Below are positions 1 through 8,700 of a DNA stretch of 8,700 nucleotides, piece by piece; within the stretch, counting starts at the first letter, position 1; each line of letters begins with the position of its first letter. The stretch is from a virus. A program made the translations under genes and the position numbers. The stretch lies in the UHGV virus genome UHGV-1440302; one strand, given 5' to 3'. A model generated the notes under the pieces. The model was not told where the DNA came from and made no database searches. It saw only the letters and a list, made by a program, of their open reading frames with translations.

Positions 1-167
1 CATCCGGCAGTGGTGGTTCAGGTTCTGGCTCCGGTGGTTCATCCGGTAGCGGTGGCTCCGGCTCGGGCTCCGGCGGCTCATCCGGCAGTGGTGGTTCAGG
101 TTCTGGCTCCGGTGGTTCATCCGGTAGCGGCGGTTCAGGTTCAGGCTCCAGTGGCTCATCCGGCGAT
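1..167 (+). repeat. Coding tandem repeat, 39-bp unit encoding GGSSGSGGSGSGS (pIII inter-domain linker)
   Basis: About four imperfect 39-bp units (e.g. ggtggttcatccggtagcggtggctccggctcgggctcc) read in the gIII frame. Confidence 0.9.
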
Positions 168-641
168 AACAATGGCTGGCTTGATGGTGTTTTGGGCTGG
201 TTACAGCGTATTTGGGTTTCAGTGAATGATTTGAATAGTTTCTTTTCTTTTTCTCAGGCTGATGTAAATAACTCACTGAATACTTTTGATGGCCAGCTGT
301 CTGATATTGTTAAAAATGAATCGGGGGATTCATCAAATGATTATGATTCTTTAATCTCTGAGTTTATTGATAAGCTACCTAAGGAGTGGTTATTTATTGA
401 TTTTGACAAGTTGTTTTTTCCTGGTAATCAGCGTTTCGATAAGGCTCAGCCACTTGAGGTTGATTTTTCATTTTCTCTTCCGGTGATTGGGACTGTACAT
501 TTTACAGTTGATACAACCGATTTTTCATCAGCGTATGATTTGTTGTTAAGGCCTGTTCTGGAATATTTTATTTATGCACTTACTGTTCTTCGTCTTTATT
601 TTGTTTATCGCCGCGCCCTGATGCGTCATGCTGAGGTTTAG
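1..641 (+). CDS. gIII: Minor coat/adsorption protein pIII, C-terminal part (5' end beyond window start): Gly/Ser linker then C-terminal membrane-anchor domain
   Basis: Open frame (codons at positions divisible by 3) from position 3 to TAG at 639-641. Encodes GGSSGSGGSGSGS repeats, then ...DNNGWLDGVLGWLQRIWVS... and a hydrophobic C-terminal segment (LLLRPVLEYFIYALTVLRLYFVY). Same frame and repeat as the ORF running off the window end. Lies directly upstream of gVI as in Ff phages. Confidence 0.8.
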   Translation, partial: SGSGGSGSGSGGSSGSGGSGSGSGGSSGSGGSGSGSGGSSGSGGSGSGSSGSSGDNNGWLDGVLGWLQRIWVSVNDLNSFFSFSQADVNNSLNTFDGQLSDIVKNESGDSSNDYDSLISEFIDKLPKEWLFIDFDKLFFPGNQRFDKAQPLEVDFSFSLPVIGTVHFTVDTTDFSSAYDLLLRPVLEYFIYALTVLRLYFVYRRALMRHAEV

Positions 642-643
642 TT

Positions 644-1006
644 ATGGTTATTTTTATTAATTTCATTTATTCTTTTGTGCTCATTATTTTCAGGAGGTTG
701 CTACCTTTTCTCAGGAATAAGTTTCCTTCTGTTTTTTCTTACACGGGTACGTTAACGTATCTTTTTATGTCGATTTCTCTTGCTGTAAGTTTTATTATTG
801 CAGCAAACTCTGTTATTGATACTGTTTCTTCTTCTGCTGTCATGAACAGGTATCTTATTATTGCGTTCAGCTATTTGCCCCATAACTTTACATTTTGCGC
901 AAACCTCATTATCGCTGCTGATTTTCTTTCTTTTCTTTTTCACTCAAAGGATCGTATTTATCGATATATTCGCTTGTTTATCTCAGGAAAAATACCGGGA
1001 GGCTAA
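644..1006 (+). CDS. gVI: Minor coat protein pVI-like (small hydrophobic virion-end protein)
   Basis: ATG at 644 follows GAGG at 633-636 and lies 2 nt after the gIII stop; 120 aa, very hydrophobic; position between gIII and gI as in M13; stop TAA 1004-1006 lies 3 nt before the gI ATG. Confidence 0.7.
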   Translation: MVIFINFIYSFVLIIFRRLLPFLRNKFPSVFSYTGTLTYLFMSISLAVSFIIAANSVIDTVSSSAVMNRYLIIAFSYLPHNFTFCANLIIAADFLSFLFHSKDRIYRYIRLFISGKIPGG

Positions 1007-1009
1007 GTC

Positions 1010-2221
1010 ATGCCAGTTATCACGGGGAATCTTGGTCAGGGTAAAGGCATTGCTGCAGCTTATTTTGCCTCACTTTATTATCGCCGTGGATTACGGGTTG
1101 CGGCAAATTACCCGCTTAACACTGAATATATGTCCTCAGGGTCGGATAACCCCGTCACGGTTATTCCGGCCATGCCCCGCATTGAGGACTTTGAGCTTCT
1201 TGGTCGTGGATGTCCTGAAAATGAAAAAACACGCTTCGGGGCGTTATTTCTTGATGAGTGTGCGACATGGCTGAATACCCGTGGTTTTGCCCGTAAGGAC
1301 AGATTACCGTTAATTGACTGGCTGATACATTCCCGTAAGCTGGGCTGGGATGTTTATCTGATTGCACAGCATGAAGATATGATTGATTCCCAGATAATTA
1401 AGGCGATGGGGGCTAAAATTATTCGCTGCCGCCGTCTTGATGAATTACGTGTTCCTGTGATTACGCCACTGATGGAATTATTCAGACCAGGAAAAACAGG
1501 GGTTGCATCAGGTAAAAGGGGGATTATTCCTCATTACGTGGCTGCCAGTACGTTTCTTTATGACGGCACGATTCACGCGGCACGACGTCCCGTAGATAAA
1601 ATCATTATCAGGGCTTCGGATTATTACAACGTTTACGACACTAATTTCATTTTCTCTGACGGAATGGAGCTGCTTAATGGCCGTTTTGTGGATATGCGTG
1701 CTGTTTATTCCGTTTTGCCCGGGCGCACACTTAAAACCATGAATCCGTTATCTCAAAAACCCGAAAAAAAGGCCGCCCCACAGAAAAAGCCGTGGGGTAA
1801 GCTGATTGCCTTTCTTTTCCTCGTCACCGCGATGATTGCCGTTGCCCGACATTATGTCTCCGGCGATCGGGAGGTTAGTGCCGCTGTCTCTCCTGTGCCT
1901 GAAAGCACCGTGACACCTGCACATCCTTTGCCTGCGTCAACGGTTGTATCAGAGCTGAGACAGAAAAAACCGGATGTGCTTCCGGTATCAAAGGAGTGGC
2001 GGCTTGCCGGATATGTCAGGGGGGCAAGTCCTTATTTTGTGCTGCTGGGTCCGGCGGGTCAGGTGCGACGTTATACCGCTTTTCAGCCATGGAACGGCAG
2101 CGCCACGGAACTGAATGTTGACGGTGAAAGGGTGACGTTCTGGTCAGGCTCATCGGGAACGGCATCAAAGGGGGATGTACTGACTGACAAAATGCTTTCG
2201 TTTGATGTGAAGAGTAAGTGA
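1010..2221 (+). CDS. gI: Assembly protein pI (Zot-like inner-membrane morphogenesis ATPase), 403 aa
   Basis: RBS GGAGG at 997-1001, ATG at 1010. N-terminal P-loop-like [10 protein letters not shown]; block [64 protein letters not shown] matches the recalled M13 pI block [41 protein letters not shown]...VVYCRRLD closely; internal transmembrane segment [15 protein letters not shown]. Confidence 0.9.
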
Positions 2222-2240
2222 AGAGTTTAACTCGTCAAAT

Positions 2241-2287
2241 ACTAAATCGTGGGGCCCCGCTGGCCTGCCAGTGGGTTCCGATTTAGT
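2241..2287 (+). other. Nested GC-rich stem-loop in the gI-gIV intergenic region
   Basis: Outer 9-bp perfect inverted repeat actaaatcg (2241-2249) / cgatttagt (2279-2287) encloses an inner stem cccgctgg (2256-2263) / ccagtggg (2268-2275) with one G-T pair and loop cctg. No T-tract follows, so it is not a classical intrinsic terminator. Confidence 0.5.
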
Positions 2288-7388: not shown

Positions 7389-7551
7389 ATTTGATTTCAG
7401 CGGTGTTTTATCCGCACTGAATTCTGGCGTACAGGACGGAGAGCTTTACTGGGCCGTTCTGTATGTCTGGATTGTCTGCTGGCTTCTTGGCTTTGGCCTT
7501 GGTGTTATTTTCACTCTGGTCTGCCGGATGTTCAGCGATGCTGTTAATTAA
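7381..7551 (+). CDS. Small hydrophobic protein, gIX-like minor coat protein candidate, 56 aa
   Basis: ATG 7381 overlaps the previous stop (translational coupling); hydrophobic segment LYWAVLYVWIVCWLLGFGLGVIFTLV; immediately upstream of gVIII. The ORF track frame begins earlier at 7348. Confidence 0.5.
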   Translation: MTEFDFSGVLSALNSGVQDGELYWAVLYVWIVCWLLGFGLGVIFTLVCRMFSDAVN

Positions 7552-7566
7552 TTTTAATTGTCAAAG

Positions 7567-7818
7567 AGGAATTTTATGAAAGTGAAAACTCTTGTTTTAT
7601 CTGGTCTGGCAATGGCAGGTTCTGTATTTGCGCTTCCGGCTTCTGCTGCGGTTGATGTTCCTTCTTTTATTACTTCTACTTCTGTTGGTGAGATTGGCAC
7701 TGCCATTACCAGCGTGATTGGCATTGCAGGTACGGCGGCATTTGCCGTTCTTGGTGTTTCACTCGCTGCCCGTCTGGGTATCGGTATCATTAAAGGCTTC
7801 CTTTCCCGCGCAACCTGA
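7567..7818 (+). CDS. gVIII: Major coat protein pVIII precursor, 83 aa
   Basis: RBS AGAGGA (7555-7560), ATG 7567; signal peptide [24 protein letters not shown] with an AxA cleavage motif; mature part has an acidic/polar N-terminus, a Gly/Ala-rich hydrophobic helix and a basic C-terminus ([13 protein letters not shown]; compare recalled M13 GIKLFKKFTSKAS); followed by a strong terminator. Confidence 0.85.
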
Positions 7819-7833
7819 TAGTTATTTAACGAC

Positions 7834-7857
7834 AGCGCCCTTCGGGGCGCTTTTTTA
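7834..7857 (+). terminator. Intrinsic (rho-independent) terminator downstream of gVIII
   Basis: Perfect 7-bp stem agcgccc (7834-7840) / gggcgct (7845-7851) with TTCG tetraloop, followed by a run of six T (7851-7856); same position as the strong post-gVIII terminator of Ff phages. Confidence 0.85.
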
Positions 7858-7877
7858 ATCATTTCAGGAGTTTTTGC

Positions 7878-8700
7878 TTGATTCGTCTTATTTTTCCGCT
7901 TCTGTTTTTGTTCTTTTCTTCGCTTTCTTTTGCTGAGGGGAAAAAAAATCCGGATGAATTTGTTGAGTGTTTTGGCCGTTTATCCTGCAGGACAGCTTAT
8001 TCAGACGCGGGGACATCGATTAAATTAGCCAGGGGAGCAGGTCATGTTTATTGTGGCTGGTCCAGTGTTGATGCATGTTCCGGAATAATTCATTATTGCG
8101 GCGACAATCCTTCAAAGGTTTCTGCCGCACCTTCTACCGTTGGGAATTTTGTTTCTGCCAAATGGCATGCATATAAAGTCTGGGATTTAGACAAGCAAGA
8201 GTGGCAAACCTGCGCCCTTGCTTTTCAGGGAGGTGAGGGTGATTTGACACCTGAATATAATAAGCCGGTTACCGAAGAAAATTGTCTTTCCCGTCCGGTA
8301 ATTAAGGACTTTTCATATTCTCTTGGTGATGTTGTCTGGGTTGATACGGGTAACGGGCAGGAATCTCAGTCCCTGGAAATTAATGGCTGTCGTTATTTGA
8401 TTGATTTTAACGAGTGTGATGACGACGGGAATTGTATCGCTCAGAGTATGCGTTCTGTTGGCGTGGCTGTCGCCAATAAAAATCCTGACGACAATACAGG
8501 GAGTGGCTCTGGTTGTGACGACGACAATTGCGATAATACGACAGGCTCTGGCGGTTCATCCGGCAGTGGTGGCTCCGGCTCGGGTTCCGGCGGCTCATCC
8601 GGCAGTGGTGGTTCAGGTTCTGGCTCCGGTGGTTCATCCGGTAGCGGTGGTTCAGGTTCTGGCTCCGGTGGTTCATCCGGTAGCGGTGGCTCCGGCTCGG
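7878..8700 (+). CDS. gIII: Minor coat/adsorption protein pIII, N-terminal part (signal peptide, Cys-rich receptor-binding domains, start of Gly/Ser linker); 3' end beyond window
   Basis: RBS AGGAG (7866-7870), TTG start at 7878 (no in-frame ATG nearby); hydrophobic signal LIRLIFPLLFLFFSSLSFA; open frame with no stop to position 8700; multiple Cys (CFGRLSC, YCGWSSVDACSGIIHYCG, CRYLIDFNECDDDGNC); enters the GGSSGSGGSGSGS repeats at about 8544. Not in the ORF track because it has no stop in the window. Confidence 0.8.
   Translation, partial: MIRLIFPLLFLFFSSLSFAEGKKNPDEFVECFGRLSCRTAYSDAGTSIKLARGAGHVYCGWSSVDACSGIIHYCGDNPSKVSAAPSTVGNFVSAKWHAYKVWDLDKQEWQTCALAFQGGEGDLTPEYNKPVTEENCLSRPVIKDFSYSLGDVVWVDTGNGQESQSLEINGCRYLIDFNECDDDGNCIAQSMRSVGVAVANKNPDDNTGSGSGCDDDNCDNTTGSGGSSGSGGSGSGSGGSSGSGGSGSGSGGSSGSGGSGSGSGGSSGSGGSGS
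8544..8700 (+). repeat. Coding tandem repeat, 39-bp unit encoding GGSSGSGGSGSGS (pIII linker), continuing beyond the window
   Basis: About four imperfect 39-bp units in the gIII frame, matching units at 1-167. Confidence 0.9.

Follow-up and report, generated by a model that had tools for sequence, protein, structure and literature searches.

The 8,700-nucleotide (nt) stretch UHGV-1440302, analysed over its full length and called the window here, is very probably, in essence, one entire genome of a temperate inovirus, a filamentous phage of Escherichia coli from the group that integrates at the chromosomal dif site. It is opened within a single gene, gIII, which encodes the adsorption protein pIII. 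The sequence-only reading had taken the window for one unit genome with both ends inside the same gIII Gly/Ser repeat array, and this description held: each inovirus module occurs once, and a unit of 8,712 nt reconstructed from a sister contig differs from the window by 12 bases and 2 single-nucleotide polymorphisms (SNPs). The present analysis goes further in finding that the window is a complete contig and that its ends are break points of an assembly graph at K=55, technical and not biological.

The window is identical over its full length to the entire contig NODE_663_length_8700_cov_14.8704 of ENA ERZ652531. As a complete assembler contig, it therefore has no flanking sequence. A look-up with the pI protein (1010-2221) returned 14 contigs, including the one identical to the window. 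The inovirus gene set is complete, with one copy per gene, and the order on the + strand of this 8.7-kb unit is Rep, a 141-residue protein, small open reading frames (ORFs), a pVIII-like protein, gIII, a pVI-like protein, pI and pIV. Its size and gene order are those of an Inoviridae-type genome (about 5-15 kb; rep-ssb-major coat-pIII-pVI-pI(-pIV) on one strand), with ssb and pVIII recognised only by position and sequence features. The features on which the argument turns lie at the two ends of the window:

7878 to 8700, + strand: 5' portion of gIII (translation, gene callers), with a TTG start, a signal peptide, a 222-residue N-terminal region and then the array
3 to 641, + strand: 3' portion of gIII (translation), with repeat units, a 158-residue C-terminal domain with a hydrophobic anchor, and a stop codon
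8544 to 8700, + strand: N-side gIII array (Tandem Repeats Finder, unit decomposition), units A0, B, C and D plus 1 nt
1 to 164, + strand: C-side gIII array (Tandem Repeats Finder periods 39/78, unit decomposition), units D, E, F and the 18-nt G, preceded by the final 26 nt of a B/E-type unit
12 to 66 and 8646 to 8700, + strand: exact 55-mer common to both ends, a K=55 vertex with in-degree 2

Translation upholds the earlier description of a gIII frame that starts at 7878, runs off the window end and resumes at the window start into the C-terminal domain. GGAG precedes the TTG at 7878, and the ORF enters the GSGGSSGSGGSGS units and is still open at 8700; independent gene callers place this 5' portion at 7878-8699. 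The 3' portion is identical to the C-terminal part of an intact pIII encoded by contig L005 and near-identical to that of contig L012, and its C-terminal end is matched by phrog_17820. With a window length of 3 x 2900, the frame is kept in a head-to-tail join, and likewise in a join with a 12-nt insertion. Intact versions of the gene exist elsewhere. The complete genome of E. coli AST205 encodes a 465-residue pIII with 9 residue differences from the window model, start codon aside, and its array reads A0-B-C-D-E-F-G, with unit sequences exactly as in the window. The intact pIII of L005 has 426 residues and differs from the window's only in repeat number. On the evidence of these translations, the two gIII fragments are confirmed as the halves of a single gene.

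The gene is assigned to gIII because of its position between pVIII and pVI, its architecture, its homologues and its intact orthologues in complete genomes. The translation contains a signal peptide, an N-terminal region, a Gly-rich linker and a C-terminal membrane anchor, which is the architecture of an adsorption protein. Over residues 1-147 the protein shares 76% identity with E. coli inovirus pIII proteins, and one homologue is named 'Phage Coat Protein A'. The homologue that was aligned, P0004, has a PF05357 Phage_Coat_A match at residues 126-171, mostly outside the stretch it has in common with the window. The N-terminal region of the window pIII itself has no Pfam match at E up to 10 and only chance-level matches among PDB sequences. 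This region is modular, in that window residues 148-222 are unrelated to the PF05357-matching domain of the homologues. Models of pIII with 3-10 repeat units have no exact-sequence record; since the 426-residue form that L005 does encode is among them, this absence carries no information. The nearest clusters in the protein database consist of 'partial' proteins that end at the array.

The layout of the protein resembles that of pIII from the Ff (M13/fd) and IKe phages, in which a Gly/Ser-rich repeat linker, encoded by tandem DNA repeats, lies between an N-terminal receptor-binding region and a C-terminal anchor; the glycine-rich linker is a generally known property of Ff pIII. In contrast to the Ff and IKe linkers, the window phage has a single long array of 13-residue GSGGSSGSGGSGS units in near-identical 39-nt copies, and the copy number ranges from 3 to at least 13 among its close relatives.

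Tandem Repeats Finder places the array, whose period is 39 (or 78), at 1-164 and 8544-8700, the only two sites in the window. Split into 39-nt units A0, B, C, D, E and F and an 18-nt terminal unit G, the array encodes the same 13 amino acids in every full unit. The two ends of the window do not overlap, and a small gap separates them. The best end-on-end register spans 66 nt with 2 mismatches (window 8 and 11), in agreement with the sequence-only reading, and these mismatches set the tail of unit C against the tail of unit E. The exact 55-mer at 12-66 and 8646-8700 lies inside this register. An overlap of the ends into a shorter array was rejected, every register having at least 2 mismatches. 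The sister contig L001 (8959 nt, from another sample) carries an exact 247-nt terminal overlap, which gives a unit of 8712 nt. Rotated to the window start, this unit aligns to the window ungapped, differing only at 5285 and 6545, and continues for 12 bases, GCTCCGGCGGCT, beyond 8700. These bases complete unit E between the last D of the window and its first partial unit.

The simplest array is A0-B-C-D-E-D-E-F-G (330 nt), with a pIII of 491 residues and a unit of 8712 nt, values that are minima and come from one independent contig. The array is longer than what the window contains, as had been suggested, by at least 12 nt, and the exact unit length could not be derived from the window alone, sister contigs being needed even for the 8712-nt minimum. 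Two simpler solutions were tried. A gapless head-to-tail join is in frame, yet it creates a truncated 27-nt unit and an Ala codon absent from relatives, and it was rejected as the simplest form; L001 shows a full E unit at the join. Also rejected was a 6-unit array alone, from which 11 of the window's 56-mers are missing. The 8-unit array has the same 56-mer set as one extended by a third D-E pair (78 nt more for each pair added), as a 13-unit array and as a mixture of A0-B-C-D-E-F-G with A0-B-D-E-F-G. Longer arrays with extra D-E pairs and the two-variant mixture are therefore equally compatible with the window.

The positions of the ends are explained by the assembly graph. De Bruijn graphs were simulated on the 8712-nt circle at K=55, 77, 99 and 127. 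The K=55 graph has four branch vertices, among them the 55-mers at 1-55 (out-degree 2) and 8646-8700 (in-degree 2), which are the exact contig ends. With K=77 or K=99 the graph branches at other positions, and with K=127 it does not branch at all. The contig carries a name of the NODE, length and cov form, which we take to be SPAdes style, and 55 is the largest default k of metagenomic SPAdes. Because the ends fall on K=55 branch vertices, their positions come from the assembly graph and not from the molecule, and the break in the window is a short-read assembly artefact at a repeat, with no biological end. On this account, an assembler given a circular or head-to-tail repeated genome would walk the unit once and stop in the 39/78-nt repeat of the pIII linker. 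The same locus interrupts other assemblies: related short-read contigs have 15 of their 34 ends in the gIII array, and one related scaffold has an N-gap there. The gIII array is a general break point of short-read assemblies.

Related contigs and prophages bear out the suggestion that the source was circular or tandem. Contigs L005 (8517 nt) and L019 (8135 nt) are circular permutations of the unit, with ends that abut between window positions 3783 and 3784 and between 3345 and 3346, respectively, and both read through where the window is broken. Permuted contigs of unit length indicate a circular or tandem topology. All three of the complete genomes inspected, E. coli 100416, AST205 and E100341, carry two head-to-tail prophage copies at dif, between hipA and the ydeQ-ydeS fimbrial genes, and the prophage units have the gene order and content of the window. 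Among complete E. coli genomes, nine chromosomes cover at least 80% of a query spanning the junction of pIV, the attachment site (attP) and the regulatory genes, and no plasmid record does. Of 5426 such genomes, 40 contain the Rep-pVIII module, always on the chromosome; these are mostly human isolates, several of them from stool.

The junctions of these prophages locate the attachment site, which has the following parts:

3663 to 3760, + strand: CTX-type attP hairpin (single-stranded DNA fold -40.9 kcal/mol, z -11; prophage junctions in L007, L008 and L011)
3665 to 3697, + strand: attP1, a dif-like site, AGTGCGCATAA-TGTGACACGCG-TTATGTTGAAA
3732 to 3758, inverted: attP2, a dif-like site

The hairpin of the + strand pairs the two dif-like sites, which are about 35 nt apart, and leaves a 6-nt bulge in the central region. 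In contigs L007 and L008, which have an identical pI, and in L011 (E. coli 100416), homology to the window stops at 3678 and ATATTATGTTAAAT follows; beyond it, L007 and L008 enter fimbrial genes. The window, in contrast, continues past 3678 into GACACGCG, where the host junction has ATATTATGTTAAAT and fimbrial-side DNA. At the attL of E. coli 100416, GGTGCGCATAATGT of dif is joined to the window sequence from 3666. The attL and attR junctions therefore place the crossover within GTGCGCATAATGT (3666-3678). In these relatives, L007, L008 and L011, all from samples other than the window's, a perfect dif is regenerated at attR and the crossover lies on the XerC side. E. coli dif with up to 3 mismatches does not occur in the window; the attP sites are more diverged, and it was the prophage junctions that revealed them. 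No ORF matched a recombinase: ORFs of at least 120 residues are assigned elsewhere or match no recombinase family, and of those below 90 residues only pVIII and the 70- and 60-residue proteins were scanned.

These sites suggest a mechanism by analogy with CTX phage. Single-stranded DNA of the + strand would fold the two inverted dif-like sites (3663-3760) into the hairpin, and host XerC/XerD would recombine it with dif in a XerC-catalysed, irreversible reaction, as for CTX phage (PMC3089051, PMC3442271). Integration of this type, from single-stranded DNA, has also been proposed for CUS-1 and the Ypf phages (PMC3089051). CTX-type phages integrate irreversibly, and rolling-circle replication of tandem prophages supplies their virion DNA (PMC3442271). 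If integration were irreversible here too, new phage DNA would have to come from Rep-driven rolling-circle replication, either between tandem copies or from a replicative form, and this combination would explain the tandem arrays of the relatives.

Two accounts of the source molecule, of about the same weight, fit these observations. The first has an even chance: the DNA was mainly an extrachromosomal circle, either the double-stranded replicative form or virion DNA converted in library preparation, and the contig is this circle linearised. The contig is unbroken across 3666-3678, where host junctions present at similar depth, as in a two-copy tandem, should cause a branch in the graph; L007 and L008 do switch to host DNA exactly at 3678. 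Contigs of unit length or permuted, devoid of host DNA, come from several independent samples, and an extrachromosomal form of YpfPhi is known (PMC4266046). Against this, the reasoning from assembler behaviour is indirect, the short common core could be passed by paired-end extension, and in complete E. coli genomes the joined junction is chromosomal only, none of the 40 genomes with the Rep-pVIII module having it on a plasmid-like record. The unbroken 3666-3678 is a weak hint that a joined form, whether an episome or many tandem copies, dominated in the sample.

The second account, a tandem dif prophage of at least two copies that the assembler collapsed to one unit-length contig, has a reasonable chance, though less than an even one. 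The three dif-integrated relatives inspected in complete genomes are all two-copy tandems, the internal pIV-attP junction is chromosomal in nine genomes, and tandem copies are expected of CTX-type phages (PMC3442271). The internal junction of a tandem carries the window's attP1 sequence, so the window is fully compatible with such a source. What this account has to explain is a contig with neither host sequence nor a break at 3678, since a two-copy tandem supports the host exit and the internal junction equally and would usually halt extension there.

The earlier alternative that the ends come from slightly different copies bears on the array and is rather improbable. One sample would then have held two array variants, as co-resident haplotypes or unlike tandem copies (for example A0-B-C-D-E-F-G and A0-B-D-E-F-G). 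The corollary, that no single molecule had the 8-unit array, is equally improbable. Such a mixture yields the same 56-mer set as a single 8-unit array, and the B-to-D junction that it needs is present in relatives. Precedents exist in sample 3300045988, whose contigs L003 and L004 differ by 2 SNPs and in their arrays, and in E100341, whose tandem consists of two different copies with pIII of 444 and 454 residues. It is countered by L001, which has a complete E followed by D, specific to a single array, and closes exactly at 8712 nt, and by the window itself, a single sequence with no SNP heterogeneity. An assembly chimera or collapse, in which the gIII fragments came from unrelated elements or the unit was unreal, is very unlikely and largely refuted already: repeats are classic sites of misassembly and related contigs disagree on array length (3, 5, 6, 8 and at least 13 units), but complete genomes contain single intact pIII genes that match both the N- and the C-terminal fragment, gene order and content are those of tandem prophage units there, and the same unit recurs in independent samples with 0-2 SNPs.

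Several points weigh against the interpretation of the window as a single closed unit with a defined array and mode of propagation. The contig fits an episome and a tandem prophage alike, the internal junction of a tandem being the same as that of a replicative form. L001 also has a 52-nt exact overlap, which gives a 13-unit array, and its 247-nt overlap could be one of several possible walks through the graph. The repeat number given for the sample is an estimate from contigs. The K=55 argument relies on general SPAdes naming and default k and on a simulation, and not on an assembly log. Finally, it is by analogy that XerCD is taken to be required and Rep to drive production from tandem copies.

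The remaining features of the window, taken from the gIII 3' portion onward, are these:

644 to 1006, + strand: pVI-like minor coat protein, 120 residues, hydrophobic (phrog_1944, E 2.8e-7; between gIII and gI)
1010 to 2221, + strand: pI, a Zot-like assembly ATPase, 403 residues (PF05707 at E 4e-9, which is above the cut-off; phrog_1675 'protein I of M13' at E 1.6e-49)
2222 to 2397, + strand: pI-pIV intergenic region with two strong single-stranded DNA hairpins (DNA fold -36.4 kcal/mol, z -5.5)
2398 to 3606, + strand: pIV secretin, 402 residues (PF00263, E 3e-24; phrog_1012 'protein IV of M13', E 5e-113)
3764 to 4672, - strand: four small ORFs (51, 82, 70 and 60 residues) from gene calls, a presumed regulatory module by position
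4787 to 6787, + strand: Rep, predicted replication initiator (nicking endonuclease), 666 residues (PF05840 Phage_GPA, E 6e-49; phrog_91 'nicking at origin of replication', E 1e-128)
6818 to 7243, + strand: 141-residue protein (phrog_30648, unknown function), at the position of a single-stranded DNA-binding protein, a role suggested by position only
7576 to 7818, + strand: pVIII-like major coat protein, 80 residues (gene call; signal peptide, hydrophobic core and basic C-terminus in translation)

The predicted Rep would supply the rolling-circle initiator, an HUH-type nicking enzyme, of an Inoviridae-type genome. The pVIII-like protein matches no Pfam or PHROG family. The 70-residue (4209-4418) and 60-residue (4493-4672) proteins of the minus strand both match phrog_2503 with E of about 1e-26; judging by this common match they are paralogues, and they are possibly small repressors. 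The core of the pI-pIV intergenic region (about 2222-2369) is 74-97% identical to many cryptic plasmids of about 2 kb and to E. coli plasmids of 60-170 kb. It matches at 565 plasmid places, one of which adjoins 'RepA4'. The region 2222-2397 is a candidate minus-strand origin or single-strand initiation signal common to phage and plasmids. An Rfam scan of the window gave no match.

Relatives of the phage vary in both integration and copy composition. The two copies at dif in E100341 (L013) differ, with pIII of 444 and 454 residues (16916-18250 and 25416-26780), a different, GGGSS-type pIII linker, and pI and pIV alleles that are also unlike; this heterologous tandem presumably arose from two successive integrations. 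In E. coli WP8-S18-ESBL-07 (L014, 11027-13998) and AST240 (L015, 11024-13995), a prophage whose Rep-pVIII module is 99% identical lies at another locus, between hcxB and ybiB/dinG, and an IS110-family transposase gene that ends 3 nt before Rep replaces the regulatory and attP module. The phage backbone appears to use an alternative integration module in these strains. The 9613-bp circular 'plasmid' NZ_AP045060.1 (L023) of E. coli JNE25-005 has an 88.7% match to the attP hairpin region, a fragment of a 'phage/plasmid replication domain', an IS3-family element and numerous short ORFs. This record may represent another filamentous phage of the dif type, entered as a plasmid in its replicative form.

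In architecture, the window phage belongs with the CTX-type inoviruses that integrate at dif and comes nearest to CUS-1 and YpfPhi, which were compared by published description and not by sequence. CUS-1 of E. coli O18:K1:H7 and YpfPhi (CUS-2) of Yersinia pestis are, like the window phage, filamentous phages of enterobacteria with genomes of about 8.7 kb and genes in opposite orientations, and their replication, morphogenesis and secretion modules are likewise present in the window or its close relatives (PMC4266046, PMC3089051). Both integrate at dif and regenerate it at attR, as the window's relatives do; both have an inverted pair of XerC/XerD binding sites in the packaged strand, where the window has paired dif-like sites; and both occur as tandem copies and extrachromosomal forms, tandem copies being found in the window's relatives as well (PMC4266046, PMC3089051). 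YpfPhi, at 8.7 kb, is present as 2-4 tandem copies at dif together with extrachromosomal forms (PMC4266046).

The resemblance to CTX phage of Vibrio cholerae lies in the integration apparatus: inverted dif-like sites with a short spacer, a forked single-stranded DNA hairpin with an unpaired central bulge, a crossover on the XerC side, no encoded integrase, and tandem prophages. RstA of CTX phage is a distant relative of the window Rep, with 31% identity. The two phages differ in host and dif sequence, and the window phage lacks toxin genes. It also encodes its own pIV secretin, whereas CTX phage uses that of its host. The sites are also closer together, about 35 nt apart in the window, which has the shorter hairpin stem, compared with about 90 bp in CTX phage (PMC3089051).

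The E. coli Rep clusters next in similarity reach only about 58-63% identity with the window Rep, and the window phage is therefore probably a separate lineage. A megablast search of the whole window against the phage collection gave no match, and a tblastn search of the same collection with Rep gave only distant relatives of about 30% identity (VFJ, fs2 and CTX RstA). A Rep scan of species-representative genomes yielded no confirmed relative.

Real differences in array length among these phages exist or are plausible. The AST205 array, from a complete genome, has 6 units. Short-read contigs suggest arrays of 3 and 5 units, which may be graph shortcuts. A related pIII in contig L017 (IMGVR_UViG_2609459825_000013, 5868-6374) has at least 13 units, (D-B) x5 and three more, and runs off its contig. 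L003 and L004 are two unit-length contigs of the window phage from JGI sample 3300045988. L003 is identical to window 1-8640, and L004 has the two SNPs of L001 (5285 A>G and 6545 T>C), and its array ends differently; this sample contains two haplotypes. Unless assembly produced the differences, different array lengths occur together in the same sample or the same tandem prophage.

A unit-length contig broken in a repeat is an ordinary result and opens no new biological question. Its value is mainly practical, in that the pIII Gly/Ser array is flagged as a recurrent point of assembly failure. Because this array systematically breaks short-read assemblies, pIII of the phage group is mostly recorded as a 'partial hypothetical protein', and short-read data give no reliable length for it. 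A metagenome contig of 8.7 kb that carried no flag proves to be a complete, closable genome of at least 8712 nt with a 491-residue pIII. It represents a lineage of dif-integrating E. coli filamentous phages for which megablast gave no near-identical entry in the phage reference set searched, present as tandem prophages in few, mostly human, E. coli genomes. More tentatively, and less probably than not, the gIII linker array may be a genuinely hypervariable locus, ranging from 3 to at least 13 units in steps of 39 or 78 nt between genomes that otherwise differ by 0-2 SNPs or are close relatives. If so, and if the variation is no product of assembly, repeat slippage or recombination would vary the reach of the adsorption protein, in the manner of a contingency locus, and the tandem prophage copies would be recombination partners for the array.

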